From a virus (lineage: Duplodnaviria > Caudoviricetes), in the IMG/VR virus record IMGVR_UViG_3300047565_000101, positions 40,801-104,800 of that record: a stretch of DNA of 64,000 nucleotides; one strand, given 5' to 3'. The position numbers and the translations under genes were made by a program. The notes under the pieces are model-generated. The model was not told where the DNA came from and did not search any database. It saw only the letters and a program-made list of their open reading frames with translations. Below are positions 23,843 to 41,947 of this stretch, piece by piece; position 1 is the stretch's first letter; each line of letters opens with the position of its first letter.

Positions 23843-24727
23843 TTATGTTTGAACATTAAATGCAGACAAGGTACTTCCTTGATCATGACTTGGAACCTTT
23901 ACAATACCAACTAATGTAGTTGCTGGTCTTACTTGAAGATCAGCTGTTGATGTTATTGTGTCTCCAAGCTGAGTCGACATCTGTACATCAGAATATGCTT
24001 TTATAGTTATTTCAGCCCCATTTGTTTGAACTGAAATTGCGGCTGGCAAAGAGCTCAGAGTTACCGAAGACAGGCCGTCTCCAGATGGCTCTTTTCTTAT
24101 CATTTGCAAATGATGCTCGACACCATTACAAGTTGCACAATTGCAAGAGTAAGGATTGCAAGAATAATACCCTCCACATGAAAAATATGTATATGTCGTT
24201 TGGCAATTACATGAGCTTGATGACGTGCATAAGGCAGGCCCTTGATATATTCCAGTTGTTCTGTCATAGCAATCAGAACCGCTTCTAATTGTATTTGAAT
24301 ATCCTGCCCCAGAGCATGAATAAACGTTACAACATGTCTGACAGCTTGTAGAAGAACTACTGCAAGTTTTGCAACTGTCGCAGTAACACGAACTATAACA
24401 GGTACTACAATTGCAACTGTAGGATGTTTGAGACGTATGTGCTACTGCTGCATACCATGAACCAGCAGAAGATATCCAAAATGCTATTCCTGTTCCAGCA
24501 GAAGGTTGTGCTGTTGCTGTAAAGCTAGGCCTAGAAACTTTTACGTATGAAATTGGATATTCTGATGCAGCTGTGCTTGACGATACAGTAGAGCCTGTTG
24601 ATGACCAGATGCCACTTAATTGCTTCCATCCATTTTTTAACCCAGATGATAAACTAAATGAATCAGAAAAATAAGCAAATGCCTTGAGTCTTGATGAGAC
24701 TACTGATCTTCTGCGTGACCTTATCAT
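23843..24727 (-). CDS. Beta-sandwich/lectin-like protein with a 20-Cys insertion
   Basis: 294 aa; about 100-aa Cys/Ser/Tyr/Thr insert between beta-rich halves; ATGA-coupled to fibre gene. Confidence 0.6.
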   Translation of the reverse strand: MIRSRRRSVVSSRLKAFAYFSDSFSLSSGLKNGWKQLSGIWSSTGSTVSSSTAASEYPISYVKVSRPSFTATAQPSAGTGIAFWISSAGSWYAAVAHTSQTSYSCNCSTCYSSCYCDSCKTCSSSSTSCQTCCNVYSCSGAGYSNTIRSGSDCYDRTTGIYQGPALCTSSSSCNCQTTYTYFSCGGYYSCNPYSCNCATCNGVEHHLQMIRKEPSGDGLSSVTLSSLPAAISVQTNGAEITIKAYSDVQMSTQLGDTITSTADLQVRPATTLVGIVKVPSHDQGSTLSAFNVQT

Positions 24728-26199
24728 GCATCAATATCTCCAGTTAGAATCCATGCGTTAGATGCTCTTTTTTCTAACATTACAGATGAGTACTTAGTTC
24801 TTGATTTTGTATAGCTATCAGTTGAAACTAATGTCGCTGGCGATGTAACGGAAAAGCTTAATCTTCCATCCCCCATTTGTCTGTACTCAATTGTTGATCC
24901 AATTGGAAATGTGGAATCAGTAGCATCATCTGGTATAGTTATCGTTACTGTACTTGAGTTTGTAAACTCTGTAATCTTATAAAGATCTTCAGATGCTACA
25001 GTATGCGACGTTCCAGTAATTGCAGTTCCGTATGATATTAAATTAACAAAATCTTTTGTTGCTATAACTGAGGTATCTACATTAAATGTGTTTGAGGGAT
25101 CTTCCTCTAGTCCAGTCCCCGCTGTTATTACCTGTGCAGCGTTGAACTGAGTATAGGATATATTTGTTGTTCCTATGGTAATGGTGCCAGTTGTACTTAA
25201 TATATACCCATTCCCGCCAAATGTTCCTTGTTCAACAAAACAGAAATCTCCATAAGAAAGCTCTCCAGATGGGGAATTATCTGCGTCTGTTGCTCTAGTC
25301 AAAACCCATGCGGTAGAACTATCACCAACTGTTGTAACGACATATATACCATTTTGCTTAGCATCTGTTTGACTTCTTACAAGAATTCTTTCGCCAGATG
25401 AGACTTCGTGATTATCAATTGTTAAAGCTTCATTTGTTGAATTATTTGTTAATGTAGCGCCAAATCCAGATGTTCCATTGCTATATGTAGCGGACAGATT
25501 GGAGCCTGTTGCACAATGTACCGCTGCATGAAAGTTTAATCCAGAAGCTATGTTATCTACATATGACTTGGTTGCTGCATGTAATGAAGATGTAGGGTTT
25601 GCATGTAATGTGAGAGCTCCTGTCAGAGTTCCGCCAGCAGTCGTCAGAAGTAAAGAAGTATCGGATATGCCATGGACACCAGTTGTATCAGATGAATGTG
25701 AAGAAAGCTCTGAGTCTCTAGCAATTGATGATGGGATTTGTGAATCTGGAATTAATCCGCTTGAATCAAGTGAAGCAACTCCATTTGCGCTGGCTCTGTC
25801 GGATAGAAGAATATAATCTTCAAGGCTATTATCTATATCTCCTTGAGTTATATTTGCGTATGAAAGCTCAGACCAATTGTCACCAGTTCCAAATTTAAAA
25901 TGTAGGGTATCTGTCTCTAATCCTATTTGAGTGGCAAGTAATACTGGGTCCTGTGATGTCCAGTCAGCTGCAGTTTTTCTTACTATTGTTGTTCCGCTTA
26001 CTGTTTCAATTTGCTCAAGTCTATACTCTAGCGAGTCAGATGCGCTGGATCCATTAATTCCAACCTTTGCTTCTATCGCCTCAATTGCATCATATATATT
26101 AGCATGAACCGTAGCATGATTAAATGTTGGTGAATTCAACAAAGAGCCAGCAGGTGGGTTTGAAAATGAATCTAAACTTGTAGGAAATTGAGTTGCCAT
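24724..26199 (-). CDS. Fibre/decoration protein with Mtd-N-like motif
   Basis: TAADWTSQDPVLL...IGLETDT motif; RILVRSQTDAKQNGIYVV...LTRATDAD fibre module. Confidence 0.7.
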   Translation of the reverse strand: MATQFPTSLDSFSNPPAGSLLNSPTFNHATVHANIYDAIEAIEAKVGINGSSASDSLEYRLEQIETVSGTTIVRKTAADWTSQDPVLLATQIGLETDTLHFKFGTGDNWSELSYANITQGDIDNSLEDYILLSDRASANGVASLDSSGLIPDSQIPSSIARDSELSSHSSDTTGVHGISDTSLLLTTAGGTLTGALTLHANPTSSLHAATKSYVDNIASGLNFHAAVHCATGSNLSATYSNGTSGFGATLTNNSTNEALTIDNHEVSSGERILVRSQTDAKQNGIYVVTTVGDSSTAWVLTRATDADNSPSGELSYGDFCFVEQGTFGGNGYILSTTGTITIGTTNISYTQFNAAQVITAGTGLEEDPSNTFNVDTSVIATKDFVNLISYGTAITGTSHTVASEDLYKITEFTNSSTVTITIPDDATDSTFPIGSTIEYRQMGDGRLSFSVTSPATLVSTDSYTKSRTKYSSVMLEKRASNAWILTGDIDA

Positions 26200-26225: not shown

Positions 26226-26816
26226 TTAAATAGACCAGAACCCAGGAGATATGTACTTATATCCAGATGCTACTGGCATAGACTGATGAAAGAATGGAGG
26301 CTTAGACGGGAATATAACTATGCTGCCTGCTCTAGGCTTTATTGTAATATCTTGATCTTCAAACCTAATATGCCCGCCCTCATAATTATCATTAAGATAG
26401 CATACGACTGATATAGTCTGTGGCCCCTCAGATCCATTTGAATCAGTATGCTTTCCCATTGATGCACCTGGCTTATACTTGCTTATAGAAAGTGGAGCTA
26501 GTTTACCAATTTCAATTCCATGTTTTAGTCCGTAGTCTTCAGACGCTTCTACTATCGCATTAAAAAGCTCCCAATAAATATCGGAATAACCATCATTCTT
26601 TCTATCTGGGCTCAGGTGATCAGACATTCTCTTTTGATAGCCAAATGCTAGACTTTCATTTCCCTCGGCACCAGATGGGTACCAGGTTTTCCATTTTGGA
26701 ATAGTGGAATTAGGATCAGACAAAATATCAAGAAGCTCTATATCTTCAATAATTGATGGTCGAATCATATTATGATATACGTGAATCTTCTCATGAGGAT
26801 ACTCACAATTAAGCAT
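26226..26816 (-). CDS. 2OG-Fe(II) oxygenase, prolyl 4-hydroxylase-like
   Basis: HTD...YLNDNYEGG...H...GYKY; start moved to MLNCEY. Confidence 0.85.
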   Translation of the reverse strand: MLNCEYPHEKIHVYHNMIRPSIIEDIELLDILSDPNSTIPKWKTWYPSGAEGNESLAFGYQKRMSDHLSPDRKNDGYSDIYWELFNAIVEASEDYGLKHGIEIGKLAPLSISKYKPGASMGKHTDSNGSEGPQTISVVCYLNDNYEGGHIRFEDQDITIKPRAGSIVIFPSKPPFFHQSMPVASGYKYISPGFWSI

Positions 26817-27537
26817 ACTTATTACCCTTTTCCCATTCTTCTTTTTGTTTGGCTTGAGCAATTCTAACTTGTCGCTCTTCCTCTTTCCATCTTTCAATTG
26901 TTTCATCATCATATTCAAGGTCTGCGAAGTCCCAAAATGAAACCATTGTATATCGTGTTCCCTTTGTAATCTCAGAAACACCATGAAGATTCTCTACTCC
27001 ACCAGGAAAGGTATATAAAGAATATGCATTTGGCTTAAAGGATATGTCATGCTCTGGGAAATAAAGCTGACCTCCTTCATAATCATCATTTAAATATAGT
27101 ATTGCTACATATTTATTTATTTCAAAAGCATTAGGCTCTCCATCATTATTAGAGTTGTCCGAGTGTACATTAGCAAATCCACCAACATCCCATTTCTGTG
27201 CATGCGAAGTGTTTGCACGAACTTCTCTATTAAATACAGATGTCACAGCCTCCTGGAACTTATCTTTAATATCAGAAAAGAAAGTGCCAGTAAGTCCAAA
27301 ACTTTTTAAGAACTCTGGCTCTGCCTTGATGCCTTTACCAGATGATCCATAGAATGCAATATCGCCCCAGTCTATTCCACACTCTTCAAAAAACTTGATC
27401 ATCTTTAATGCGGTTTCTGGCATTACAAAATTTGATATCTCAACAATTTTATTCTCTGGCACATTTAAGGCGCCTTTGCTATTCGGCTCATCCTTGTAGT
27501 AAATGAATTTTGACTTATCTATACTTTCAATGATCAT
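26809..27537 (-). CDS. 2OG-Fe(II) oxygenase, prolyl 4-hydroxylase-like
   Basis: HSD...YLNDDYEGG...HGV...GTRY; ATGA overlap start. Confidence 0.88.
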   Translation of the reverse strand: MIIESIDKSKFIYYKDEPNSKGALNVPENKIVEISNFVMPETALKMIKFFEECGIDWGDIAFYGSSGKGIKAEPEFLKSFGLTGTFFSDIKDKFQEAVTSVFNREVRANTSHAQKWDVGGFANVHSDNSNNDGEPNAFEINKYVAILYLNDDYEGGQLYFPEHDISFKPNAYSLYTFPGGVENLHGVSEITKGTRYTMVSFWDFADLEYDDETIERWKEEERQVRIAQAKQKEEWEKGNKYA

Positions 27538-28211
27538 GGTTGTTTGTCTCCAGTATGCTTTAATATTGTCCAAAAGAATGGTATTACATATCTAATACCA
27601 GACTCAATCTTTGTAACCCCGTGAATATAATTCATATCTCCTGGAAAGAAGTATGCGCTTCCCTCTTTTGGCTTAAACTGAATTCCCTGATTAGGAAAGT
27701 ATAGCTCTCCGCCCTCGTAATCTTCATTTAAATAAAATAAACCAGCGATATCATACCAAGGAAAGTCATTTGGCTTTCCAGCATTATCACCTTCATGCAA
27801 TTCTTTATCTGCGTGAGGCATTTGAAGTTGACCTGGGAACCATCTTACAATAGCTGGGCTTGTTGGAATAGCATCTACCTTAAAAAAGTTATCTACTTCT
27901 ATTTTTAGTCTATCAACAAGCTTTAGTATTACTCTACTAATCTCTGGGTCCTCTTGGTCTAAAGATCTTCCTGTTGCTACTCTATCTTTCCAATACTCTG
28001 AGTCATAAATTACTGTTCCGTCTTCATTGTAATGCGTCTCAGTCACATCCCAATGAGTTATATTCTTTGCAGCATTAAGCAAAAATCGATGCTCTTCCTT
28101 TGTCATAAAACTTTCTCTGGCCTGAATGTTATTTGAAGAGTCGCCAAAGAATCCTGACGGAGTTATAGAAAATCTATTATTTGAATGATTATTAGAGTAG
28201 TTACTATTCAT
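27534..28211 (-). CDS. 2OG-Fe(II) oxygenase, prolyl 4-hydroxylase-like
   Basis: HAD...YLNEDYEGG...HGV...GIRY. Confidence 0.88.
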   Translation of the reverse strand: MNSNYSNNHSNNRFSITPSGFFGDSSNNIQARESFMTKEEHRFLLNAAKNITHWDVTETHYNEDGTVIYDSEYWKDRVATGRSLDQEDPEISRVILKLVDRLKIEVDNFFKVDAIPTSPAIVRWFPGQLQMPHADKELHEGDNAGKPNDFPWYDIAGLFYLNEDYEGGELYFPNQGIQFKPKEGSAYFFPGDMNYIHGVTKIESGIRYVIPFFWTILKHTGDKQP

Positions 28212-28230
28212 ATATCTATTTTACCATTTC

Positions 28231-28962
28231 TTATTCATATGACCTTTTTGACCAAATCTTATTCTTATATACTCCGCCATTTATAACCCTATACTTCTTT
28301 GCATTTTCCATATTGCTTTTAATCATAGAATGATGGTCTGGAACTAAATAATCAGATGTCCAGTCTTCTCTTTTAAATGGAAGCATCTGCGCGTATGGTG
28401 TTCCAGCTGGTATAACTCCAGTCCATCCTTCTCTAATAAAGAATGGCATTGAGCCTGGAAGATTAACCTTGTCATTATCTATAATTCCAGCTACTGTCAT
28501 AAATGGCAGATCATATCTATTGAAAGGTGATGAGTAAAGCACACTATACCCCTCAGGAGCCTTTACAGCCCATTCTGGGAACCAAGCGAAGTGTTCCCTA
28601 TAGAAACCATAGGGGTGCTCGAATTGAGGCATCTGAGGCCTTACAGAGCAAAAATCACGATATCTCTCATCCAATACCCTGCAATCAATATTTCCGTTTT
28701 CATTCACAAAGAACTCTATATCGCATGGTGTTACTAATGCATATCCAGTTGCCATTATATCGAATAACGCTGGACAGGCCTTCCATGTAGGAACCTTACC
28801 TCCGTCTGGACCGATCCAAAAATCATTTGTTCTTGGATCTACTGCAAATCTATCAGCATCACGAAACCATGAAGGAATAAATTTAATAATTGAGCTTGGC
28901 TTGTTTATATCTGATTTATTAAGCCAAGGTCTATTTGCAATAAAATGCATTTTATTCGACAT
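28231..28962 (-). CDS. DUF6065-like protein (degenerate dUTPase-like fold)
   Basis: WKACPALFD, GIIDND, IPAGTPYAQMLPFKR. Confidence 0.55.
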   Translation of the reverse strand: MSNKMHFIANRPWLNKSDINKPSSIIKFIPSWFRDADRFAVDPRTNDFWIGPDGGKVPTWKACPALFDIMATGYALVTPCDIEFFVNENGNIDCRVLDERYRDFCSVRPQMPQFEHPYGFYREHFAWFPEWAVKAPEGYSVLYSSPFNRYDLPFMTVAGIIDNDKVNLPGSMPFFIREGWTGVIPAGTPYAQMLPFKREDWTSDYLVPDHHSMIKSNMENAKKYRVINGGVYKNKIWSKRSYE

Positions 28963-29674
28963 GATTTTTCCACTTACTATTGTTGACAACCTGAAGCTTT
29001 AAAGCTTTTACTTCATGTTCTCCGACCTTTTCGCCTTTTTCATTGACTGCATCTCTATACCAGTCTGTCCATTTCCCAGCCTTATTTATTACTTGAGCAG
29101 CTTCGCCATAAGATCTTAATCTATTATTATATTCATCATTTTCAATAAAGTCTAATATCTCTACGGACTCTTCTTTCAAAGATGTTAATGATATAGGTAT
29201 TATAGTTGCAATTGGCTGACCTGCTTTGATTGTAATAACCTTATTTGGCGTTCTAGCTTTTATTGCTAAAGGAAACTCTGCCTCTAGAAATGAAGTGCTT
29301 ATCAATGAAGATATCACTTCAAAATCTTCATAAAAATAGTTCTGCGGAGTAATTGTTAATACGCTTATATTTTTATCTGACCTCAATATTAAACCAGTAT
29401 TAAAGCTTACACTAGACTGCCCTCTGCCTGTATATGTTTTATCAGCACCGTCTAATATTTGAATATGGTCTGATCCAGTATCATTTATGCCATCCCAAAT
29501 AAAACTAACGTCATAAGGGGCAGAAAGAGTCCATCCGATAGTATTTGCAGTTGTTACAGGATAGCAATGATATGCATGTCTGGCTGGTGTTTCCTCCATC
29601 CAGTCTCTTTGAGCTGATAACGGCTGTATCACCAGAGCATCATCGTGTCTTTTGTATGCCCTTAATATAGACAT
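28952..29674 (-). CDS. DUF6065-like protein
   Basis: RDWMEET...AYHCYPVTTANTIGW, IKAGQPIATIIP. Confidence 0.6.
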   Translation of the reverse strand: MSILRAYKRHDDALVIQPLSAQRDWMEETPARHAYHCYPVTTANTIGWTLSAPYDVSFIWDGINDTGSDHIQILDGADKTYTGRGQSSVSFNTGLILRSDKNISVLTITPQNYFYEDFEVISSLISTSFLEAEFPLAIKARTPNKVITIKAGQPIATIIPISLTSLKEESVEILDFIENDEYNNRLRSYGEAAQVINKAGKWTDWYRDAVNEKGEKVGEHEVKALKLQVVNNSKWKNHVE

Positions 29675-30357
29675 TAAGATCCAGTTTCTTGATAGAACTC
29701 TGGCTTGTGATACTTATCGCTGTAATCAAGCATTGTTACTAATGAATACTTTGTGCCACTAAGTACTTTCTTTGCCTGATGAGGATACATAAAGTTTGAT
29801 GGGAATAGTACTGTGTCTCCAGCCTTTGGCTTGTAGTTTACTCCCTGGAGCCTGAAGAATATTTCTCCACCTTCATAATCGTCATTCAAATATGTAACAA
29901 GAGAAAGTGTGCAATTATAGGAATATCCATGATCATGGTGTTCCATAAAGTGCTGACCTTCTCCATATCTAATAAAATTAAAAGCTTCCCAATATCTTAA
30001 ATTATTGATGTTAAATCTTTTTGAGTAGTCTTCTACGGCTGGAAACTGTGCATCATAGCAATCTTGCCATATTTGCTGAAGCTTAAGAGAGGCATCTGAA
30101 GGATCCCCAGCTATATCTGATTTCTTAAACTTAAAGTCAACGCAATCTCTATACTCTGGCATTCTCTGTCTATATCCGACATATGCATCTTCCCACTTAT
30201 ACTGATTAGCTTTACTATTTAGAACATCTTCTAATCTATTAATAACATCAAGCTCTGGCTTTACTGTATCATGATAGACTAAAATTCCAGCACCTACTTC
30301 TTCTACACTACTCCATGTTGGAACTATAGTTGAGCTATTTGATGCATTTACATCCAT
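29674..30357 (-). CDS. 2OG-Fe(II) oxygenase, prolyl 4-hydroxylase-like
   Basis: HHD...YLNDDYEGG...FPSNFMYPH...GTKY. Confidence 0.88.
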   Translation of the reverse strand: MDVNASNSSTIVPTWSSVEEVGAGILVYHDTVKPELDVINRLEDVLNSKANQYKWEDAYVGYRQRMPEYRDCVDFKFKKSDIAGDPSDASLKLQQIWQDCYDAQFPAVEDYSKRFNINNLRYWEAFNFIRYGEGQHFMEHHDHGYSYNCTLSLVTYLNDDYEGGEIFFRLQGVNYKPKAGDTVLFPSNFMYPHQAKKVLSGTKYSLVTMLDYSDKYHKPEFYQETGS

Positions 30358-31097
30358 TATATAACCTGTCCATTCTGATTAATTCTAACACCATAAAGAT
30401 TGTCTTTATGGGCTAAGTCATTGATATCCATCATTACAACTACGCAATACTTAGTTCCAGATTTAATTGGAAGTGATGCATGCTCGTATGCATAGTTAGA
30501 TGGGAATATTGCTATATCTCCATACCCTGGCTTTACAGTAGTATTATCAAGTCTAGGGAAAAATATCTCTCCGCCCTCGTAATCTTCATTTAAATATATT
30601 ACAGCAGATACTGCACACTTATACATAGGTCCATCATCTGCATGGATTCTAAAGTGCTTGCCCTCTCCTTCATACTTTACAAAGTTAAAGATCTCATAGA
30701 AATTAACATTAATTCCCCAGTATCTTGCGTAGTCATCTACGCATCTTCTAAGTCCATTAAAAATCTCATCATAGATTTCATGTAGCTCTGCGTTTGATTC
30801 ATTCTTTTCTCCGAGAGACTTATGATTCATTTTAAAATCAACACAATCTCTTGCCTTCTTAACAGGAGCATCATCATTAGTCACTTTTGCTTCGTTCCAT
30901 CGATATGAACCATTGCTATCAAGATACTTATTTAAAACATCAATATACTTGTCAATCTTATCTTTAGAAAATGCATGATGATAAACATTAAGCCCAAAAC
31001 CTGGATTAGATACACGAATTCCATCAAAATTTTTATCTGGCATTCTTGTGCCAGTAGACTCTGTTCTATCTTTTTCAAACCACTCGTTATTTTCCAT
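30357..31097 (-). CDS. 2OG-Fe(II) oxygenase, prolyl 4-hydroxylase-like
   Basis: HAD...YLNEDYEGG...FPSNYAYEH...GTKY; GGAGG RBS before ATG 31097. Confidence 0.88.
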   Translation of the reverse strand: MENNEWFEKDRTESTGTRMPDKNFDGIRVSNPGFGLNVYHHAFSKDKIDKYIDVLNKYLDSNGSYRWNEAKVTNDDAPVKKARDCVDFKMNHKSLGEKNESNAELHEIYDEIFNGLRRCVDDYARYWGINVNFYEIFNFVKYEGEGKHFRIHADDGPMYKCAVSAVIYLNEDYEGGEIFFPRLDNTTVKPGYGDIAIFPSNYAYEHASLPIKSGTKYCVVVMMDINDLAHKDNLYGVRINQNGQVI

Positions 31098-31166
31098 TGT
31101 AGCCTCCAATACACATTATAGCATTTGTGATTTTCGGTTACAATAGGTTTTAATGCAGTTTATAGC

Positions 31167-32426
31167 TTATGAGATGACTATATTATTTTCTGCAATATAC
31201 CACTGGTATGGTGTAGTTCTGATGTCGTACACATCTCTATTTACTTCAACTTGAATAGAGTCAACCTTAACGCTTGATATAGTTTTATTTTCTACATCAA
31301 TATTAATTATTGTGTCTCCAATTTCAATTTCAGCAACCAACAGATTGATGAATTTTCCATCTCTATCTACGATTATTGGCTGAGCTGCGGAGTAGAAAAC
31401 ATTTGTATCGTTAAATGCGATTACATCCTTGACATCCTTGTCTACACTGACGACATCAATCTCAATAAAGCTTATATTTGAATCAGTAGGAGTATCAATA
31501 ATATTATCTCCATCTAATCCAGCTGGATCAATTGTTAAAAGTTTATCTCCAGCTTGAATTAGCTTTGCTGCTACATAGCCTCTATCTGCAGTTAATATGC
31601 GTGTTTCGCCATCAATACACTTATATCCCTTAAAGTATGGGAAGTATGGGCCAAATGAAGGCGGGAAGTATGGGAATGAAGGTGGGAAAAATGGGAAGTA
31701 TGGAAAGTAAGGTGGGAAGTATGGTGGGAAGTATGGGAAGAATGGGAAGTATGGAGGGAAGAATGGCGGGAAGAATGGTGCTGTCGTTGTAATACTGTTT
31801 GAGTTTGCTGAATAAGCAGCGCTTCCATTACCATTTGTAGCAAGAATCTGATATGTTTGAGCTGTTCCAGCTGTTTCATCAATTGTACGTGATGTAGCAG
31901 AAGCATCCGCTGAATATGTTGGTCCGTCTGAAGACTTAATTGTGTATCCAGATATAGCTTTTCCGCCTGTTGCTGGAGATGCCCATGATACAACATCTTG
32001 ATTAGCATTTGGAGATGTAGCTGTTGGGGCAGACATAATAGCTGGAACAGTTGTAACAGTTACAGATGAAGATGTCACAGAATCTGATGATCCAGAAGCA
32101 TTTACTGCCACTACTGTAAATGTGTATGCTGTGTCTGACTTTAAACCCTCAAAAGTATATACAGTTGAATTATCTCCAGTTTCAACCGTATAAGTTGTTG
32201 GAGTTGTTGTAATTGTATAAGATGTAGCAGGAGGAGATGTTAGTGGAAGACCCCACTGTATTTCTACTGCACCTCCAGTTCCAGATGCGCTGGCAGCAGA
32301 TGTTGTATTTGCTGTAGCCAAATATGGTCTATTTGTTCCAACATCAGTGACAGTTAATGAGGTTACTTCCGATGGCTCTAAAAAGTCATTGGATTGAGAT
32401 GAATGTCTACCTGCTCTTTTGCTCAT
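31167..32426 (-). CDS. FN3-FN3 / Pro-Phe-Tyr repeat / C-terminal Hint-domain protein
   Basis: Two FN3 repeats (YTFTVVAVNASGSS; YQILATNGNGS); 49-aa P/F/Y tract; CIDGETRILT...VYDIRT...YIAENNIV Hint blocks. Confidence 0.8.
   Translation of the reverse strand: MSKRAGRHSSQSNDFLEPSEVTSLTVTDVGTNRPYLATANTTSAASASGTGGAVEIQWGLPLTSPPATSYTITTTPTTYTVETGDNSTVYTFEGLKSDTAYTFTVVAVNASGSSDSVTSSSVTVTTVPAIMSAPTATSPNANQDVVSWASPATGGKAISGYTIKSSDGPTYSADASATSRTIDETAGTAQTYQILATNGNGSAAYSANSNSITTTAPFFPPFFPPYFPFFPYFPPYFPPYFPYFPFFPPSFPYFPPSFGPYFPYFKGYKCIDGETRILTADRGYVAAKLIQAGDKLLTIDPAGLDGDNIIDTPTDSNISFIEIDVVSVDKDVKDVIAFNDTNVFYSAAQPIIVDRDGKFINLLVAEIEIGDTIINIDVENKTISSVKVDSIQVEVNRDVYDIRTTPYQWYIAENNIVIS
31632..31778 (-). repeat. 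Imperfect 9/12-nt coding repeat encoding (P)P[F/Y/S]F units
   Basis: 14 units, e.g. TTCCCATAC; 20 Pro in 49 residues. Confidence 0.9.
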
Positions 32427-32466: not shown

Positions 32467-34347
32467 TTATGCCGTAAGATCGCCATAAACAAGCCATGTA
32501 TTTGTATCACGCTTGAATAATGTCGCTGTTGACCATTGGGTTCTAAGTTTTAGTCCTGGAGTTGAATTTACTGTAACTCCAGAGTCTCCAGCAATTGTAA
32601 CCTGCCCAGTAGATGTCTGGCAAATATCAATTGATGCTCCAATTGGGAAGGCCACGGCTGAATTTGTTGGAATTGTAATTGTAGTTCCAGATGAAGAAGC
32701 TACCTCGATCATAGAGTCTCTTTCGCTTAGACTTGAAAGAGTATATGATTCAGTCTTATTAATAATAGGAGTTCTTGAAGGAACACCTTCCTTTGTCTGC
32801 GCTCCGTCAGAAAATTCAATTCCGCCGACCTTCATGGTGTCATATGTGACTCCAGAAAAATCAATTGCGTTATCTACTGGCTCTGGGGCATTAGAAACCA
32901 ATTTCCATTTTCCGTCTGAAGCATCACGAACAACACCTGTGTGGAAATGTCCAGTCTGAACATCTCCATATGCACCAAATATACCAATATCTAGAGCGTC
33001 TGTATCAAACTGCTCTGATGCAAGATATATAAGTGAGTCTGTGACCTCAAGGTTTGCTGTATCGACTGTAGTTGTAGTTCCATTAACAGTTAGGTTTCCA
33101 GTAATTGTTAAGCTGTCTACTGTTCCTCCTGCAGTTGTAAGAAGAACAGATGTGTCAGCTATACCGTGAATATCGGTTGTGTCAGAAGCATGTGATGAAA
33201 GAGTTGACGATGAAGCCTTTGCATCTAGTTGTGTCTGAATTGCAGAGGTTACTCCGTCAAGATAAGATATTTCTGTTGCAGAAACAGTTGATGATGATCC
33301 AGTTACTTTTTTAAGTTCAAAACCAGTATTTCCGTAGCCATCATTATTATATGAGTATGTTTCGTCAATTGTTGCATCAAGTGATCCGAACACGGTATCT
33401 ATGTTAACTACTGTCCAAACCTTTGAGTTAATTTCTGTTTCACCGCTCTTATATGCTTGAACTGTGTCTCCAACTTGGACTCCAGCACTATTTGGGAACG
33501 GATACTTATAAAAGTTAATTCCAGTAACACCTGCTGAAACAGGGTAAGTGGAAACTTCAAAACCTGTTTCTGTTCCAACGACAGTGTATCCAGAACTAAC
33601 GGTTATTGTAGGGCTAGAGAGAGTCTTATTAGAAATAGTCTGAGTTCCTGTTGTTGTAACAAGAAGGGACGTGTCTGCAATTCCATGAATATCTGTTGTA
33701 TCAGTAGCGTGACTTGAAAGAGATGTTGATGAAGCCTTTGAATCAAGCTGAGACTGGATTCCAGAAGTAACTCCATTTATATAGCTAATTTCAGTTGAAG
33801 ATACATCTCCAATTGTAGTTGTTGAAGGAAGAACTACGTCTCCAGTAAATGTTGGACTTGCCTTGGGAGCTTTTGCTGCATCTAAATCTGATATATCTGT
33901 TGTATGACCAGATACTGTAGATGCTAATGTTCCAGCAGCAGTATTAATATCTGATATATCTGTTGCAATTCCAGTTACTGTTTCTTCAAGAGTTCCAATT
34001 TGCCCTGATAGATCTTCATCTAATGCGTTTACAGCGCTTGTAACGCTAGAAACTGTAGCGTAATAAGTATCATCAATTTGTGTATTTGGAACTTTTGTAC
34101 TTGAATTAAGTGATGCAACACCGTTTGCAGCACCTCTATCTGATAGCAATATATAATCTTCAAGCGATGTGCTTAGGTCTGCTGGTGTAGTATTAGCATA
34201 GTCTGTGATGCTATTCCAGTTATTGCCATTTCCAATTTTAAATTGAAGTGTATCTGTTTCAATACCAATTTCACCTGCAAGCAATACTGGATTTGCGCTT
34301 GTCCAGTTTGCAGCGGTATCTCTTCTAAGTTGAATTCTAATTGCCAT
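32467..34347 (-). CDS. Fibre/decoration protein with Mtd-N-like domain
   Basis: IQLRRDTAANWTSANPVLLAGEIGIETDT; internal duplicated segment. Confidence 0.75.
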   Translation of the reverse strand: MAIRIQLRRDTAANWTSANPVLLAGEIGIETDTLQFKIGNGNNWNSITDYANTTPADLSTSLEDYILLSDRGAANGVASLNSSTKVPNTQIDDTYYATVSSVTSAVNALDEDLSGQIGTLEETVTGIATDISDINTAAGTLASTVSGHTTDISDLDAAKAPKASPTFTGDVVLPSTTTIGDVSSTEISYINGVTSGIQSQLDSKASSTSLSSHATDTTDIHGIADTSLLVTTTGTQTISNKTLSSPTITVSSGYTVVGTETGFEVSTYPVSAGVTGINFYKYPFPNSAGVQVGDTVQAYKSGETEINSKVWTVVNIDTVFGSLDATIDETYSYNNDGYGNTGFELKKVTGSSSTVSATEISYLDGVTSAIQTQLDAKASSSTLSSHASDTTDIHGIADTSVLLTTAGGTVDSLTITGNLTVNGTTTTVDTANLEVTDSLIYLASEQFDTDALDIGIFGAYGDVQTGHFHTGVVRDASDGKWKLVSNAPEPVDNAIDFSGVTYDTMKVGGIEFSDGAQTKEGVPSRTPIINKTESYTLSSLSERDSMIEVASSSGTTITIPTNSAVAFPIGASIDICQTSTGQVTIAGDSGVTVNSTPGLKLRTQWSTATLFKRDTNTWLVYGDLTA

Positions 34348-34787: not shown

Positions 34788-36449
34788 TTATCCTACTACT
34801 ACCACTCGATATTGATTTGATGTAGGAGCAGATGAGAATTTAATTGTTAGGGTATCTGCTGTTGCATGCTCAACATCAACCTCTACCTCTGCATATGGAG
34901 ATGCTGTTTCATATACACGAGCAGTAACATCTCTAGTATTTAAGCTATGTGTTACTGTATATGATGTTGCTGATCCGTCTCCAATTGAAACTGAATATTT
35001 TCTAACTCCATAACCTTCAGAGAAGTTAAGGTAGCCAGTAGCTATATCAAAACCAGTTCCAGCATTAATTGTCGCAGCTCCATTAGAGAATACAAGACCT
35101 TCTCCAAGAACTACCTTAATTCCATTGCTGTCTATATCTAGACCCGCTGCTGTATTTACAGTAGCATTGATTATGTTTCCATCAAGCTCAATTGAGTTTG
35201 ATCCAACATATGTTCCCTGTCCAGAGAACTGCACCCACTCTTGACCAGTAAAGTCTGTTAAGTAGTGGTTTGATTGTACCCATGAGGTTGAGCCGTATTG
35301 AGTTCCTTCAATAACAAATACTGAAGCTCCAACTAATTCACCAAATGCATCTGCATCTGTTGCTCTGACTGCTACAAGAATTGGGTCATTAAACTGAAGA
35401 ACATAAATACCGTTTTCTGAGTCTGTAGTCTGACCAGTAAGCAATATTCTATAGCCAGCGTCATTTGAATCAAGCGCCCCGTGACCATCAATTACAACTC
35501 CTGCTACATCTCCTGAAATATCAATATTTGATGTTGCAAGAAGATTTACTGATTGCTTCCAGTTTAATCCAGCTACTGCTGAATCTACATAACGCTTATT
35601 TGCCGCATCTTGTGCATCAACTGGATCTGCAAGGTTTGTTACCTTATTATTATCTGCATCTAGATGTGCATCTAATACTGTTCCAGATCCTAGTGTCTTG
35701 TTTGTAAGTGTTTGTGAATCTGATGTTGTTACAACAGTTGAGTCAATATCTACTGTTAATGTTCCCGCCGAGTCATTATATGTTACATCAATTCCAGTTC
35801 CGCCATTTAATAGGCCTGCTGTAATATCCTGTACACGCTCAGCATTTAGTGTTACTGCACCATCTGTTACAGTAAAGTCTGTTGAGTTAAAGCTTGCAAT
35901 ACCCTTATTTGATGATGTTGCGTCTTCTGCTGAAATAGTTACTGTATCTACTGTAGCAACTGGGCCAACCTCAACATTAATGCCTTCACCGCCAACAAAT
36001 GCTAAGGTCTCTGTTAGAAGGTCTACTGAACCAGTTCCAGTATCTCCAGAAACATTTAATGTTGTAGCAATATCTTCTGAGCCTGCAGCTGTTAAGCGGC
36101 CTTGCTCATCAACTGTAAATGTTGGAATTGCTGTTGCTGATCCATAGCTTCCAGCTGTTACTGCTGTATTATCAAGATCAATTGTTGTTGTTCCAGCTGA
36201 GTCATTATATGTTGCTGTTAGGCCAGTGCCTCCAACTACAGCAGAGCCAATTACATCTTGGATTACTTCTGTTGAGCCAGAAGCTGGGATCCATGAAGAT
36301 CCATTATAAAAGTATAGTACGTTTGTGCTTGTGTCAAAGTATATTTGACCAGCTACTGGGCTAGATGGCGCAGAGCTGAGATTTTGAATTCTAGCGTTTA
36401 AGAGCTCATTTTTATTGAGGTCTAAACTAACTACAAATTTTCTTGCCAT
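34788..36449 (-). CDS. Fibre-like structural protein
   Basis: [29 protein letters not shown] fibre modules. Confidence 0.65.
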
Positions 36450-37633: not shown

Positions 37634-39565
37634 TCAGGACGATATATCTACAATTTCACAATTGCCGTCTGATGTACATGCTAGCGTTTGAGTACCACTT
37701 GTACCGTCTTCTGTTTCATAGAAAGATAAATCTTCCCATCGAATGCTTTCTGGCATTCTAGCTAGCAATTCTTCATATTCTTCCTTTGTAACTTCCTGGT
37801 ATGGAGCCTGCTTGTATGTATGATCAGAGTGAGGCAGGAATGAAATTCCAGAAACCTCATCAAAGTGCTTGTATACCCAAGCTCCAACTTCCATCCACTC
37901 TTCCTCTTTTACAGAAACTGTAATTGAAGGCTTATGTTCACACCAAGCACGTTGATAAACAAGCCAAATATTCAAGTGATCAATTGCAGTTAAATCATTT
38001 CTTGTAATTGCGCCTTCTGGTGCCTTTACTGGGAATGAGAAAACAGAAGTGTCATTTGGCTTCATAACATCATCTTCTACTGGGATACCAACCTCAGTCA
38101 AGAATGTTGTAATTGGGTCCTTCTTGTCTCCACGTACTGTTCTAATGTAGTAATCAGAATGCCATGCATGCATTCCTGAGCTAACCCCGACCAATTGAGA
38201 TACTGTTCCAGAAGGCTTTACACATGTAATAGCTGCAGACTCAGGAATCCCAATTTTCCCTGCCTCTTCTGAGTTAATTGTTCTTGCATACTCACGAAGT
38301 CCAGTTAAAACTTCTTCAAGCTTTGCAAGATTTTCCTTACCAGAAAAGAACTTGTGGCCAAACTGTCCTGTGAGTGAAACTCCAAGAAGTCGTTCTTCTT
38401 CTGTATTATCCTTCCAGATCTTTCTTAAGTACTTAAAGTCTGTCAGTGTTGATTGCCATGTACCAAGAATTGTTGCAAGGCGTACTTTATTTGAAACATC
38501 CTCAATTGTATCCTCTTCACGTAATACGACTTCTGAAAGATTACAAAACTGGTAAGGACGTAAAATAATTTCTGAGCATGGGTTCGTTCCATAATGGACT
38601 TCAGGGTCTCTACGACCATACTTAGCTGCTTGCGCCTGCGCTGCTGCAACATTATAGATTCCACGTTCGCCAGACTTCGAGTCATATAAAGATTTCCATT
38701 CCGCTATGAACTGCTCCATATCTGGCTTACGAGAATATGCAACAGAGTTGTTTGATAATGCACGTTGAGAATTGTTTTCCCACCAATTGCCAGCCTTAGC
38801 CTGAGCCATTTCAATATCGTTGATATTTGAAAGAGAAATCATTGCTGATCTACGAACTCCTCCAACTACAACAATCTCACCAATCTTACACATAATATCA
38901 TGTGCTTCAATTGGCTTAAGCTGACGACCTGCTGCTGACTTAAACTTAGCAATTGTAAAATCAAAAAGATTAATTAGTGGTTGTGGGCCAGATGATCTTC
39001 CACCCATTGTCTTTAAACGTGCACCTGCTGGACGAAGCTTGCTTACATCAATAGCTGGAATCTGTCCAGACCAAAGCAATGCAAGAAGTTCACGATACGC
39101 CTTTGCCCATCCTTGCTTTGAATCTTCAACTGTAATAACTGTTGTAGACTTATCAAAAGAATCTGGGACGGCGGGAAGCTTATTAACATACTTATACTCA
39201 ACAGAGAATCCAACGCCTGTTCCACACATAAGAATATACATTGTTTCATCAAATGATCTTGGTGAATCTACTGGAACGAATGAGCAGTTATATCCAGCAA
39301 CATGATCTCTATCTAGAGCTGCACCAGCGGTCATTACAGAACGCATTGATGGCATAACATTTCTATTAAATACAGCTGACTTTAATTCTTCAACAATCTT
39401 TGTATCTGGAACATAGTTCATTGTTTTGAGGTGTGACAGCATGAAATCAAAATATCTATCAACGGTCTCACCCCATACTTCTCTACGATTCTCTTCTGGT
39501 ATCCAACGTGCATATCTTGAGAGAGCGATAAAATTCTCATAAGGATTTTCAATAGTTCTTGACAT
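37634..39565 (-). CDS. nrdJ: Class II (B12-dependent) ribonucleotide reductase
   Basis: GGVRRSA, TNPCSEI, CVKPSGTVSQL motifs; C-terminal Cys pair; no beta subunit gene alongside. Confidence 0.9.
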   Translation of the reverse strand: MSRTIENPYENFIALSRYARWIPEENRREVWGETVDRYFDFMLSHLKTMNYVPDTKIVEELKSAVFNRNVMPSMRSVMTAGAALDRDHVAGYNCSFVPVDSPRSFDETMYILMCGTGVGFSVEYKYVNKLPAVPDSFDKSTTVITVEDSKQGWAKAYRELLALLWSGQIPAIDVSKLRPAGARLKTMGGRSSGPQPLINLFDFTIAKFKSAAGRQLKPIEAHDIMCKIGEIVVVGGVRRSAMISLSNINDIEMAQAKAGNWWENNSQRALSNNSVAYSRKPDMEQFIAEWKSLYDSKSGERGIYNVAAAQAQAAKYGRRDPEVHYGTNPCSEIILRPYQFCNLSEVVLREEDTIEDVSNKVRLATILGTWQSTLTDFKYLRKIWKDNTEEERLLGVSLTGQFGHKFFSGKENLAKLEEVLTGLREYARTINSEEAGKIGIPESAAITCVKPSGTVSQLVGVSSGMHAWHSDYYIRTVRGDKKDPITTFLTEVGIPVEDDVMKPNDTSVFSFPVKAPEGAITRNDLTAIDHLNIWLVYQRAWCEHKPSITVSVKEEEWMEVGAWVYKHFDEVSGISFLPHSDHTYKQAPYQEVTKEEYEELLARMPESIRWEDLSFYETEDGTSGTQTLACTSDGNCEIVDISS

Positions 39566-39650
39566 TTTTGGTGACACCTTTTCTCCGCCTAACGGTTAAT
39601 TAAATTTTGTGAAGTATAAGTGTACCAAACTTTTTTTTAATGGTCTAGGT

Positions 39651-40640
39651 CTACGAGAACTTTTTTACAATATGGTCAAAAGCATTATTGGTCAACTGAT
39701 TCCAGTTATATTCATCATGAATTTTACTAGCCTGCGCCATATAGTAACTTGAATATGGCTTAAAGTTTGATGCCACATCAAACATAAGGGCTCTTAAATC
39801 CTGATAGTCTGGCTCAAACACTTTTCCTTCATGAGGGAATGGCCAAGGAGAATCTATCAATGTTGACTTTAGCTTTAGTGGTCCAAGATACTTTTTATAA
39901 TGAGCCCACTCTCCAACGCATATTGTTGGCATTCCAGTAGCAAGAGCTTGAAGCGGAATAAATCCAAAGCCTTCACCATAGCTAGGGTATACAAGAACAT
40001 CATGATCATAATAAAGTTGCAACATTTCTTCTTGACTATAGTCATCAGTAATTATTTTTATGTTGCTATACATCTGGTCTGGTAAACCGATGATCTCTCT
40101 ATCAATATAGTTGTTAAATAATCTCGTTGTATTATTCTTATACGCTTTTATTGTTAATGAGTACCCTGGCTTATTCCCATACAAACTAACAAATGCATCA
40201 ACTACCATTTGTCCAGCTTTTCTTGGTGCTGGCTCTCCTACATGCAGAAACTTAATCGTTTCTGATTCCGCTCTTTTGCGTGGCTTCCACATTGGATCTA
40301 TTCCATGTGCATAAACCCTTACATCTTTTATTCCGTTATCTTCAAAAACATTTGCACACCAGTCTGATGTTGTCCAGATTTCATCACAAGCCATCATGTT
40401 TGGCTTCCACTCTTCTGGCACTACAGTTGACTCCCATGGAGTGTATCCAATCTGATACTGGTTTCTATGCATCTTAAAATGTGTTGGCTGAGAGAAGTTT
40501 AGCTGTACTGGAGCAGATGGAGCTTGATATGGAGTTTGATGTCCAAGCTCATTTAATGAATCTATTATAGAATGAGCTGCTGATCCATATCCAACAGACT
40601 TGTTAAAGTTTGCTCTAAGCGTAGAAAATGAAATTTGCAT
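39651..40640 (-). CDS. GT-B (family 4-like) glycosyltransferase
   Basis: YTPWES, RK, PSYGEGFGFIPLQALATGMP. Confidence 0.85.
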   Translation of the reverse strand: MQISFSTLRANFNKSVGYGSAAHSIIDSLNELGHQTPYQAPSAPVQLNFSQPTHFKMHRNQYQIGYTPWESTVVPEEWKPNMMACDEIWTTSDWCANVFEDNGIKDVRVYAHGIDPMWKPRKRAESETIKFLHVGEPAPRKAGQMVVDAFVSLYGNKPGYSLTIKAYKNNTTRLFNNYIDREIIGLPDQMYSNIKIITDDYSQEEMLQLYYDHDVLVYPSYGEGFGFIPLQALATGMPTICVGEWAHYKKYLGPLKLKSTLIDSPWPFPHEGKVFEPDYQDLRALMFDVASNFKPYSSYYMAQASKIHDEYNWNQLTNNAFDHIVKKFS

Positions 40641-40720
40641 ATAAATCTTTTCAGTTGACTAACTTGACAGTAACTTACTGACAATGATACTATTATAGTT
40701 CGTTATCTCTAAAGGAGGAA

Positions 40721-41284
40721 ATGCCAATGGAGAATAAAAAACAGCAGTTAAGCGATGTTGTACATCACTGGACAGCAATCATAATGGTAACATTATTTTT
40801 GTTTCCCGTCCAGCCAGCAACAGCCTTACCTGCACCAGCAGTAAAAACTGAATACCAATTAAAGCAAGCGACGTTGCATAGACTAAGTACTACAAAATAC
40901 ACGGCTAAGCAGCAGCTCACAGAGAAAGATCTTATAGGCCTTCTTAAGGCGGTAGGATTTGAAGGTACAGGTCTTAAAAAAGCTTGGGCCATAGCAAAGA
41001 GGGAATCTAATGGACGACCACTTGCATATAACGGAAACAGAAAAACTGGAGATAGTTCCTATGGAATATTTCAAATTAACATGATAGGAAGTCTGGGAAC
41101 AGATAGACTAGAATTGTTTAAGGAGAAATTTAACATGAAAACTAAAACTGAGTTATTCGACCCAGTAACAAACGCAGAGATAACGTACTACATGACCAAT
41201 GGCGGAAAAGATTGGTCAAGCTGGAAGGGCCTAACCCCTAAAGCTAAGGAATGGCTTAAGCTATTCCCGAATAACCTAGCATGA
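40721..41284 (+). CDS. Secreted lysozyme-like/lytic transglycosylase
   Basis: N-terminal hydrophobic signal; AIAKRESNG, SYGIFQIN, LFDPVTNA, WSSW. Confidence 0.8.
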   Translation: MPMENKKQQLSDVVHHWTAIIMVTLFLFPVQPATALPAPAVKTEYQLKQATLHRLSTTKYTAKQQLTEKDLIGLLKAVGFEGTGLKKAWAIAKRESNGRPLAYNGNRKTGDSSYGIFQINMIGSLGTDRLELFKEKFNMKTKTELFDPVTNAEITYYMTNGGKDWSSWKGLTPKAKEWLKLFPNNLA

Positions 41285-41292
41285 GAGGTATA

Positions 41293-41505
41293 ATGCACAT
41301 ACAATATGTGTCTAAATACATAGCTCTTTCTGAAGAGGGCCTTGTTTCTAAGATGGAATGTCCACTAGACCAAGGTCCTCTTTTTTGCAATCAAGATCAT
41401 GATGAGTCTGTATTCTTATATTGCTTATCATGTGATTACAAAAAGACTCTTGGAGCTTCAAATTTGGACAAAATTAAAAAAGAGGTAGAAGATGCTTTGC
41501 GGTAA
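41293..41505 (+). CDS. Small Zn-ribbon-like protein
   Basis: CPLD...CLSC. Confidence 0.5.
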   Translation: MHIQYVSKYIALSEEGLVSKMECPLDQGPLFCNQDHDESVFLYCLSCDYKKTLGASNLDKIKKEVEDALR

Positions 41506-41605
41506 CGATAAAGTAAAAATTGAATATGAACATGATCCTATTCCAGTTACAGATAACGCTGGAAGAGAAATTTTTTGGGAAGATATAGGGAGAAAAGATG
41601 ACTGA
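41492..41605 (+). CDS. Hypothetical 37-aa protein
   Basis: GAGG RBS; MLCGNDKVKIEYEHDPIPVTDNAGREIFWEDIGRKDD fills the gap between neighbours. Confidence 0.4.
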   Translation: MLCGNDKVKIEYEHDPIPVTDNAGREIFWEDIGRKDD

Positions 41606-41843: not shown

Positions 41844-41855
41844 TTTTCGTACAAT
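41827..41855 (+). promoter_or_regulatory. Housekeeping-sigma promoter TTGACT-N17-TACAAT
   Basis: Near-consensus hexamers, 17-nt spacer, no downstream ORF. Confidence 0.7.
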
Positions 41856-41861
41856 TAGATT

Positions 41862-41943: not shown

Positions 41944-41947
41944 CTTA

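Follow-up and report, generated by a model that had tools for sequence, protein, structure and literature searches.

The window analysed here, a stretch of 64,000 nucleotides of phage DNA, carries on its minus strand a gene for a 419-aa protein (31167–32426) that was delimited by its ORF, by Pfam and by metagenome homologues, 476 of which were found at E ≤ 0.001. It is followed directly, on the same strand, by seven genes with Pfam, PHROG and alignment matches to 2OG-Fe(II) oxygenases (five) and DUF6065-type proteins (two), as a preliminary description of the locus had claimed. Both neighbours of this block, which had been placed between two fibre genes, are fibre-like: the upstream gene (32467–34347, minus strand) has an Mtd_N N-terminus and matches tail-fibre PHROGs, and the downstream gene (24724–26199, minus strand) matches tail-fibre PHROGs as well. 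An Mtd_N tail-fibre-like gene always lies directly upstream of the corresponding gene in relatives. The mostly overlapping start and stop codons noticed earlier were recovered when likely ATG starts were used, with gene ends that touch or overlap, and no minus-strand terminator-like site was found across 22–38 kb. A ribonucleotide reductase gene (37634–39577) shares the same late-strand block and adjoins the array in the relatives L024–L026; the position in a 'structural' region is therefore weak evidence. Genes for a TylF-like O-methyltransferase and a GT4 glycosyltransferase lie nearby.

The two FN3 repeats recognised earlier in the 419-aa protein differ in quality. The first (residues 50–115; 32082–32279, minus strand) passes Pfam (fn3, E 1.2e-10), whereas the second, FN3-like domain (about residues 135–209; 31800–32024, minus strand) matches profile positions 7–81 of 84 with an E of 0.0015, which fails the Pfam cut-off. 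Behind them lies a Pro/Phe/Tyr tract (residues 217–265; 31632–31778, minus strand), described as 49 residues with 20 prolines and almost only Phe and Tyr otherwise; a recount in the translation gave P20, F18, Y8, S2 and G1. The tract repeats a P(P)-[F/Y/S]-F unit 14 times and measures 19 to 110 aa in relatives. A scan of the whole 104.8-kb genome revealed no second Pro/aromatic tract and no collagen repeats, and the tract is thus the sole Pro-rich candidate substrate apparently encoded by the phage. The layout had been called RiPP-like, which holds as an analogy only: the candidate substrate is a multidomain virion-type protein of 419 aa, and no leader or recognition element is recognisable in it.

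The motif KGYK|C places the end of the N-terminal part at K269|C270, and the 150 residues from C270 to S419 (31170–31619, minus strand) extend up to the stop codon. Matches of this segment to Hint profiles are weak at the sequence level (PT-HINT, E 0.004; Intein_splicing, 0.008). The Hint domain of about 150 aa proposed previously is borne out by an AlphaFold model (pLDDT 91.7) with mini-inteins, BIL domains and the Hedgehog autoprocessing domain as best Foldseek matches (TM 0.70–0.75; individually 2lwy 0.67–0.73, 6y75 0.70, 1at0 0.72–0.75), and together with the family conservation this makes the Hint fold a confident prediction. Block B reads S-A-A-Q, with Gln in place of His, and the C-terminus has no terminal His-Asn, for which reasons self-cleavage may be slow or absent in the 419-aa protein. 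One could go further and regard the domain as catalytically inactive, a terminal cap or folding module that stays on the mature protein with neither cleavage nor ligation, a view that would also suit the lack of anything behind the domain and the many relatives with a working module devoid of any Hint. We consider this somewhat unlikely, because position 1, compared across 124 distinct domains of the family, is occupied by Cys (64) or Ser (30) and by no other residue where aligned, 30 rows being gapped there so that the count rests on 94/124. Furthermore, the Ser/Thr of block B is found in 100% of these domains. Asp is more frequent than any other residue at its block F position (43/124), and our protein has it as well. 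Gln in block B occurs in 62 domains, about half of the family, and these too have Cys or Ser at position 1 wherever it aligned. It is difficult to see why a Cys would persist right at the domain boundary if no acyl shift took place, and BIL-type Hint domains are known to auto-cleave, those of B-type doing so at their N-terminus although they possess no C-terminal motif (PMC7765530).

All five array oxygenases, encoded on the minus strand, exceed the Pfam threshold for 2OG-FeII_Oxy_3 (PF13640). Paralogue 1 (30357–31109; E 1.9e-10) is P4H-like and keeps the HxD...H...K residues, and paralogue 2 (29674–30357; E 1.1e-14) has the P4H of B. anthracis as best PDB sequence match (E 3.7e-4). Paralogues 3 (27534–28211; E 4.2e-8) and 4 (26809–27573, likely ATG start 27537; E 5.2e-8) were assigned with the aid of a catalytic-residue alignment, and paralogue 5 (26226–26984, likely ATG start 26816; E 1.6e-14) matches a PKHD hydroxylase and the lysyl hydroxylase LH3 in the PDB. 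The alignment revealed H-x-D, a distal H and an aligned K/R in all paralogues, in line with the signature noted before. Protein hydroxylases (B. anthracis P4H, LH3 and a PKHD-type enzyme) are the solved structures closest in sequence, and characterised P4Hs are matched weakly (E about 1e-3 to 1e-4). Orthologues across phages are 60–93% identical and paralogues only 19–39%, which implies that distinct oxygenase functions were retained for a long time. Outside the array, a sixth paralogue (41948–42580, minus strand) was found by sequence-family match, as well as a weaker family match (45508–46356) that received no Pfam call.

DUF6065 protein 1 (28952–29674, minus strand; PF19541, E 8.7e-30) carries an invariant Cys37, and its model (pLDDT 92.9) combines a dUTPase-like fold with a C-terminal helical part (against dUTPases: VIA Z 11.1, Foldseek E 1e-5). 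The DUF6065-like protein 2 (28231–28989, minus strand, likely start 28962 or 28950; phrog_7084, E 3.1e-30) is a paralogue with 18–24% identity in the alignments; both genes fall in PHROG 7084, and Pfam calls DUF6065 for protein 1 only. A third DUF6065-like gene (43538–44287, minus strand; DUF6065 HMM built here, E 2.9e-38; phrog_7084, E 9.6e-39) is situated outside the array. As it lies away from the tract gene, like the two additional oxygenase matches, we counted these three genes against a tailoring of the tract.

According to the models, DUF6065-type proteins have the fold of a nucleotide enzyme, and the array could accordingly be an auxiliary metabolic island for the synthesis or modification of a small molecule, a peptide secondary metabolite, a nucleotide or a DNA base, with DUF6065 binding a nucleotide-like ligand. 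The ribonucleotide reductase, O-methyltransferase and glycosyltransferase genes nearby would suit this idea, as would a halovirus DUF6065 homologue that adjoins thymidylate synthase and DNA polymerase genes and the secondary-metabolite synthesis proposed for the gp43-containing array of cyanophage Syn9 (PMC2938197). We nevertheless judge it quite improbable. The oxygenases belong to the protein-hydroxylase branch (PF13640; P4H, LH3, PKHD) and not to TET/JBP or AlkB, the ORFs examined around the array include no halogenase, NRPS or ATP-grasp gene, and a DUF6065 profile search found no dUTPase by sequence. Moreover, such an island would leave the co-variation of the array with tract type, described below, unexplained.

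The layout of tract gene and array was seen again in about 100 related viral contigs and is therefore far from chance. Of the distinct homologues with a Pro-rich tract, 63 have a downstream context that could be evaluated, and in 63/63 an array follows that comprises two or more oxygenases as well as DUF6065; this array is retained even with tract-protein homologues of 34–36% identity. Complete array runs comprise a median of 7 oxygenases (range 2–8), with 2 DUF6065 genes in 55 of 58. Conversely, 1.5 kb or more of upstream DNA was available for 56 viral loci anchored on DUF6065, and each of these has an ORF with a Pro/aromatic tract no further than 3.2 kb upstream; in 42 of them the distance is 101 bp or less. 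Nine of these tract ORFs have a different N-terminus and keep the tract, so that the tract rather than the FN3 part appears to be the constant of the module. The co-occurrence suggested for related phages was thus found in both directions; much of it is inherited synteny, because the loci come from related phages.

A contrast is offered by homologues with a Pro-poor Gly/Phe tract of the type FGFxPFG (L011, L018/L019, L026–L033), in which the P4H-like array is absent in 4/4 cases. These loci instead carry 1–3 copies of another paralogous family, which was found only there save for one weak match in L126; its protein-language-model look-alikes include 2OG-FeII_Oxy_5 clusters, and it is possibly a relative of these. 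The upstream fibre gene is still 54–68% identical. In a tree of the FN3 part, at least two independent tract-type switches were found and the array follows both, two independent contrasts being a number at which a sign test cannot reach significance. The enzyme set changes with tract composition, and the P4H-like array belongs with the Pro/Phe/Tyr-tract gene to a single conserved module. The Hint domain is a non-obligatory part of it, since homologues with Cys-rich or acidic tails in its place (L012, L014, L024, L025, L087–L094) still have the array.

The oxygenases might modify other targets at the phage–host interface, such as the neighbouring tail fibres, other virion proteins or the host envelope and host proteins, while the tract serves as an unmodified rigid or hydrophobic spacer that is adjacent to the array only via a hypervariable fibre island. 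This would agree with the fibre genes that always bracket the array, with the Syn9 array, which stands directly behind fibre and fibre-assembly genes and has no tract gene among gp35–gp51, and with other proteins (L054, L056, L061) in which PFF tracts, next to (PT)n linkers, simply connect domains. It is rather unlikely in our opinion, because the array is replaced exactly where the tract is Pro-poor even though the upstream fibre is conserved, the tract stays in the nine loci with another N-terminal domain, and the fibres encoded in this genome are free of Pro-rich and collagen-like segments.

As tract and enzyme array go together in relatives, the phage probably modifies one of its own virion proteins chemically. 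For the complete proposal, a conserved virion-protein tailoring module in which the tract is hydroxylated by the array and the Hint domain removes itself, we see about an even chance; here we infer an enzyme–substrate relation, its chemistry, self-cleavage and a location on the virion. The module would belong to a group of uncultured phages whose hosts, including that of this phage, are probably actinobacteria. The two FN3 domains would present the small fibre-associated protein on the virion, where a conserved N-terminal peptide presumably docks it, and the hypervariable tract would sit behind them. Five anciently diverged P4H/lysyl-hydroxylase-like oxygenases would hydroxylate tract residues, most probably prolines, and differ from one another in site or regiochemistry, and the two dUTPase-fold DUF6065 proteins would be their partners in the module. 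An N–S acyl shift at C270 followed by self-removal of the Hint domain could leave the modified tract as the new C-terminus, by hydrolysis or by transfer to a nucleophile. The tailoring interpretation of the preliminary description gains from the conserved tract–array module, the Hint fold and the conserved Hint nucleophile, and it is weakened by a Hint domain that is not obligatory. Its further ideas of DOPA-like residues, glycosylation or methylation in the tract and of an adhesive or shielding appendage are hypothetical.

Pro/Tyr-rich repeats are heavily hydroxylated in plant extensins and in mussel foot protein 1, which contains Hyp, diHyp and DOPA, and the hydroxylated repeats yield extended, adhesive or cross-linkable polymers. 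The phage tract resembles them by functional analogy only: the substrates are not homologous, and the phage lacks DOPA and cross-link enzymes. The phage Hint domain shares with BIL domains, especially those of B-type, and with Hedgehog/Hog domains the Hint fold, an N-terminal Cys/Ser nucleophile and the lack of a splicing partner; like BIL domains it occurs in hypervariable, non-conserved proteins, and like Hog domains it is placed C-terminally. It differs from Hog proteins in having no sterol-recognition region behind it, and from both groups by the Gln that replaces the block B His in half of the phage family and by its carrier, a phage virion-type FN3 protein whose N-extein ends in a low-complexity Pro/aromatic tract.

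Hydroxylation of a co-encoded viral protein has a precedent in PBCV-1, whose P4H acts on Pro-rich repeats in the virus's own proteins (PMC3634087). Both viruses encode P4H-type 2OG oxygenases (monomeric in PBCV-1) together with Pro-rich proteins; PBCV-1, however, infects a eukaryote, encodes a single enzyme and has repeats of the (PAPK)n type, whereas this phage group combines five to eight paralogues and DUF6065 with an aromatic tract of P(P)-[F/Y]-F type, a Hint end and directly adjacent genes. For bacteria, Iyer, Abhiman, de Souza and Aravind (2010, PMC2938197) predicted that hydroxylases and sulfotransferases act on co-encoded tail-collar/collagen-like proteins, the neighbourhoods of beta-hydroxylase, sulfotransferase and PAPS synthetase suggesting hydroxylation and then sulfation of a structural repeat protein. 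In one relative (L021), genes for an Asp_Arg_Hydrox protein, a sulfotransferase-like protein and an APS kinase likewise stand beside the same tract gene. The bacterial systems are, unlike the phage, cellular with Gly-rich or collagen-like substrates, and no sulfation gene was detected among the genes screened in the window.

A close counterpart is the Syn9 region gp41–gp54, where a tandem dioxygenase array and a 'dUTPase-fold protein with a conserved cysteine' were described beside fibre genes (Iyer et al. 2010, PMC2938197). This partly precedes the present layout, for which no characterised phage system had been known to the preliminary description, although secondary-metabolite synthesis was proposed for that dioxygenase–halogenase array and no protein substrate was named. 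Syn9 gp43 matches our DUF6065 HMM (E 2.6e-17), gp47 matches the Gly/Phe-associated family (E 1e-8), and a scan of the 17 neighbouring genes gp35–gp51 revealed no Pro/aromatic tract. Both phages thus carry many diverged tandem 2OG-Fe(II) dioxygenases directly after tail-fibre genes, but Syn9 adds tryptophan halogenases and a JmjC/MINA member, whereas the array described here is P4H-like throughout and coupled to the tract gene.

The gene for the 419-aa protein and the oxygenase array behind it form one module, in which the enzyme set tracks the composition of the tract. The preliminary description had proposed to test whether tract-Hint genes co-occur with clusters of prolyl 4-hydroxylase (P4H)-like genes in related phages, and a linkage of Pro/aromatic-tract genes with the array held in both directions among related viral loci (476 family proteins at E ≤ 0.001; 136 loci examined). 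An array was present behind all 63 distinct Pro-rich-tract homologues with enough downstream DNA, including proteins of 34–36% identity and short forms which carry Cys-rich or acidic tails and no Hint domain. In the reverse search, anchored on DUF6065 genes with at least 1.5 kb of upstream DNA, an ORF encoding a Pro/aromatic tract was located no more than 3.2 kb upstream in 56 of 56 loci, usually within 100 bp of the array. In nine of these loci the N-terminal domain is not detectably of the FN3 family and the tract is present. An uncultured Caudovirales contig from NCBI (L021, 34% identical) carries additional genes around the same array (2889–4140 and 9923–11427), namely a sulfotransferase-like gene, an Asp/Asn beta-hydroxylase, an APS kinase and a luciferase-like monooxygenase, which hints at sulfation after hydroxylation.

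Homologues with a Pro-poor tract of the FGFxPFG type provided the corresponding comparison. Four distinct proteins with usable context, out of six found in about ten loci, lack the P4H-like array. At its position these loci contain one to three tandem copies of a paralogous family of ~215 aa (L011:12543–13828; L018:7374–9283; L026:12035–12706), which is confined to FGFxPFG-type loci apart from one weak match and is characterised by the motifs W-H-D-H, F-H-G-Y-Y, G-H-P-H and R-I-T. Locus L011 adds a sulfotransferase-like gene and an Asp/Asn beta-hydroxylase-like gene. The ~215-aa family showed no Pfam match, a marginal PHROG match for one of three sequences (phrog_2696, E 0.0022) and no relation to the P4H-like paralogues by hhalign. 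Its HMM is matched by gp47 of cyanophage Syn9 (E 1e-8), and look-alikes found by language-model search alone include 2OG-FeII_Oxy_5 clusters, which we treat as a lead only. A phylogeny of the FN3 part shows at least two switches of tract type, each of which the array follows; with two contrasts, significance is out of reach of a sign test.

The tract itself (residues 217–265 of the 419-aa protein) is built from 14 P(P)-[F/Y/S]-F units and contains 20 P, 18 F, 8 Y, 1 G and 2 S residues. On its N-terminal side lie an FN3 domain (Pfam E 1.2e-10) and another that scores weakly (E 0.0015). On its C-terminal side comes KGYK|C270, with 150 residues from C270 up to the stop codon. No other Pro/aromatic tract was found in the whole genome. 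As G-X-Y runs are likewise absent from the whole genome, collagen-type substrates were rejected. Neither the 7-kb block (megablast) nor the 419-aa protein (tblastn) matched anything in the cultured-phage collection; judged by these sequence searches, the tract gene is carried by no cultured relative there. Related phages also use tracts of the form PFFPP(F/S/T)F, beside (PT)n linkers, as repeated connections between the domains of Cys-rich multi-domain proteins (L054:1–1122, L056:1240–2898, L061:780–2297), and because of this use the tract can be assigned to a general linker type of the phage group. Second paralogues (L007:12088–13287, L010:17335–18519, L020:1911–5228) share the Hint end and have Pro repeats of different types, namely (TPPYDN)n, (TPAPPDF)n or (PTF)n. 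Behind each of those in L007 and L010 lies a single additional oxygenase gene. The window has a Cys-rich protein (23843–24727) at the position of this second paralogue.

The window was drawn from a 104.8-kb viral contig (bases 40801–104800) which is about 97% complete. The major capsid protein shares 57–59% identity with counterparts from large Streptomyces siphophages, which together with the GC content of 38% points to an actinobacterial host of low GC. From 37255 down to 20081 every gene lies on the minus strand: two small genes, a fibre-like gene (34788–36449), a 145-aa gene, an Mtd_N-type fibre gene (32467–34347), the 419-aa gene (31167–32426), the seven array genes, a second fibre-like gene (24724–26199), the Cys-rich protein gene, and then genes for a laminin-G protein, a 121-aa protein and the portal. 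Just ahead of this run, in the same orientation, is a ribonucleotide reductase gene (37634–39577). Between 22 and 38 kb the minus strand has no terminator-like site, and promoter and terminator scans gave counts at chance level. A promoter-like site (31115–31143, minus strand; TTGTAA-17-TATAAT, extended -10 with TG upstream) falls within the 57 nt that separate the tract gene from the first oxygenase gene, in a region where promoter-like counts equal chance.

All five oxygenases recognised in the preliminary description have a DSBH domain that scores above the curated Pfam 2OG-FeII_Oxy_3 cut-off, and the Fe(II) triad and Lys/Arg signature are present in each. Together with a sixth copy (41948–42580) they reach 34–56 bits against a cut-off of 27. 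H156, D158 and H210 are invariant in all six paralogues, and a Lys or Arg, as the basic residue that serves the C5 carboxylate of 2OG, occupies the aligned G-T-K/R-Y position in six of six. Their nearest solved relatives by sequence are, weakly, protein hydroxylases: the P4H of B. anthracis (E 3.7e-4), the lysyl hydroxylase LH3 and a PKHD-type hydroxylase. Nucleic-acid oxygenases of the TET/JBP or AlkB type were rejected, as a single sub-threshold Tet_JBP match was obtained. We consider the array enzymes candidate prolyl 4-hydroxylases, the substrate of which we infer from gene context. The paralogues are 19–39% identical to each other and the orthologues of each, found in the same order in related contigs, 60–93% identical; the paralogues therefore represent old, separately retained functions.

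Two further array genes encode DUF6065-type proteins. One (28952–29674) matches Pfam DUF6065 (PF19541) with 104 bits against a cut-off of 26.6, while the other (28231–28989) was assigned solely by phrog_7084 and our own HMM. The model of the first protein (pLDDT 92.9) revealed a dUTPase-like barrel over residues 1–170 and a helical C-terminal part, and two independent aligners agree on this fold (VIA Z 11.1 with 119 residues aligned; Foldseek E 1e-5). Trimeric dUTPases are defined by the fold together with five sequence motifs, including motif III with its catalytic Asp and the P-loop-like motif V; a search of PDB chains with the DUF6065 family profile returned no sequence match and no dUTPase. 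The invariant residues of the family include a Cys. Our literature search found no paper mentioning DUF6065. Gp43 of Syn9 matches our DUF6065 HMM (E 2.6e-17). A DUF6065/phrog_7084 homologue also occurs in the haloarchaeal tailed virus HSTV-2 (L143, record 28132–29001), where it adjoins thymidylate synthase and DNA polymerase genes, a nucleotide-metabolism context unlike that of the window.

The terminal Hint domain proposed for the 419-aa protein was borne out by modelling. Folding of the C-terminal 152 residues together with 33 homologues gave a model with pLDDT 91.7, the best Foldseek matches of which (probability 1.00, TM 0.70–0.75) are all Hint domains, among them the Ssp DnaB mini-intein, Tetrahymena BIL2, a C. 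thermocellum BIL and the Hedgehog autoprocessing domain 1at0. The fold is thus established by structure prediction; Pfam did not call the domain at threshold and sequence comparison with the PDB yielded BIL domains or inteins at E 0.2–0.3 only. Among 124 distinct domains of the family, position 1 is Cys in 64 and Ser in 30, with no other residue where aligned (C270 in the window), and the block B Ser/Thr is 100% conserved. From this conservation it follows that the position-1 nucleophile is under selection. The block B His position is occupied by His in 60 and by Gln in 62 of the 124 domains, the window protein having Gln (S-A-A-Q versus T-x-x-H).

The C-terminus reads ...N-I-V-I-S before the stop codon, and other clades end in ...H-N-K with a single Lys after Asn. 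Because nothing lies downstream and a terminal His-Asn is lacking, the domain cannot splice, and a true intein, which would have a C-extein and a C-terminal His-Asn with a following +1 Cys/Ser/Thr, was rejected. Nor is it strictly Hedgehog-like, since an adduct-recognition region is missing: all 150 residues from C270 to the stop fall within the Hint model with nothing after them, and a Hedgehog-type sterol transferase was rejected. By analogy with B-type BIL domains, which perform an N-terminal acyl shift and then cleavage (PMC7765530), the same reaction is the likeliest putative activity. The Hint domain is an optional end-piece of the module and does not belong to its core. In short members of the family (loci L093:6407–7030, L140:6466–6843 and L094:2042–2599; proteins P0062, P0067 and P0083) small Cys-rich tails replace it, several ending in ...C-x-C-A-V, and the oxygenase array still lies behind them.

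The simplest explanation of the module is that the tract is the substrate of the array, to which we assign an even chance. Confidence is limited because the loci are kin, so that co-occurrence may largely be inherited synteny, and because the ribonucleotide reductase gene belongs to the same block. It is limited further because more oxygenase matches and a DUF6065 gene occur elsewhere (41.9–46.4 kb). This set lies in a second group of modification-type genes (39651–46356), where it adjoins a GT4 glycosyltransferase (39651–40640) and a TylF-like O-methyltransferase (42788–43420), and consists of the sixth oxygenase, a third DUF6065-like gene (43538–44287) and a weakly oxygenase-like seventh gene (45508–46356) with no Pfam call. 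The nucleotide-metabolism neighbour of the halovirus DUF6065 homologue, thymidylate synthase, and the Syn9 array, which has no tract gene among the 17 neighbouring genes scanned, reduce confidence likewise.

The RiPP-like layout suggested in the preliminary description was not sustained. RiPP systems comprise a short precursor with a leader or recognition sequence, a protease-released core and a recognition element on the enzymes. Here the candidate substrate is 419 aa long and contains two folded FN3 domains, a dedicated protease is absent, and domain searches revealed neither leader nor recognition element.

A more far-reaching reading joins substrate-matched tailoring with Hint thioester attachment; we regard it as rather unlikely. 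In phages of this group, a fibre appendage would carry a low-complexity, hypervariable tract that co-evolves with an oxygenase cassette: Pro/aromatic tracts would be paired with the P4H-like array, and Gly/Phe tracts with the other, oxygenase-like family. Poly-hydroxylation would yield a polymer resembling extensin or mussel glue, sulfated or glycosylated in some relatives, and the Hint thioester would join its C-terminus covalently to another virion component or the host envelope. If true, this would be a post-translational chemistry known for no bacteriophage virion.

Of the genes in aquatic phages that lack an explanation, those for 2OG-Fe(II) 'prolyl hydroxylases' rank with the most frequent; as a rule they are classed as auxiliary metabolic genes or receive no assignment. 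The module supplies a candidate substrate that is concrete and testable, namely the one Pro/aromatic tract, which is encoded beside the enzymes and co-varies with them across relatives. If confirmed, it would mean that phages hydroxylate their own virion proteins. DUF6065 and the dioxygenase arrays known from cyanophages since 2010 would then have a function, virion maturation would be a further natural role for a terminal Hint domain, and a collection of small, diverged hydroxylases acting on peptides with defined repeats would become available. Searches of the literature on hydroxyproline in phage virions or on a tract-array module returned nothing specific, and no description was found of the full combination, in which an FN3 protein with a P(P)-[F/Y]-F tract ends in a Hint domain, a P4H-like array is matched to it and there is co-variation by tract type. 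The individual parts are of known kinds: viral P4H, phage dioxygenase arrays, predicted hydroxylation and sulfation, and BIL/Hog autoprocessing. Syn9 carries dioxygenase arrays with a dUTPase-fold partner (PMC2938197); the 17 neighbouring genes scanned in Syn9 include no tract gene. For bacteria, co-encoded tail-collar or collagen-like proteins have been predicted to undergo hydroxylation and sulfation (PMC2938197), and in PBCV-1 a viral P4H acts on Pro-rich viral repeats (PMC3634087).
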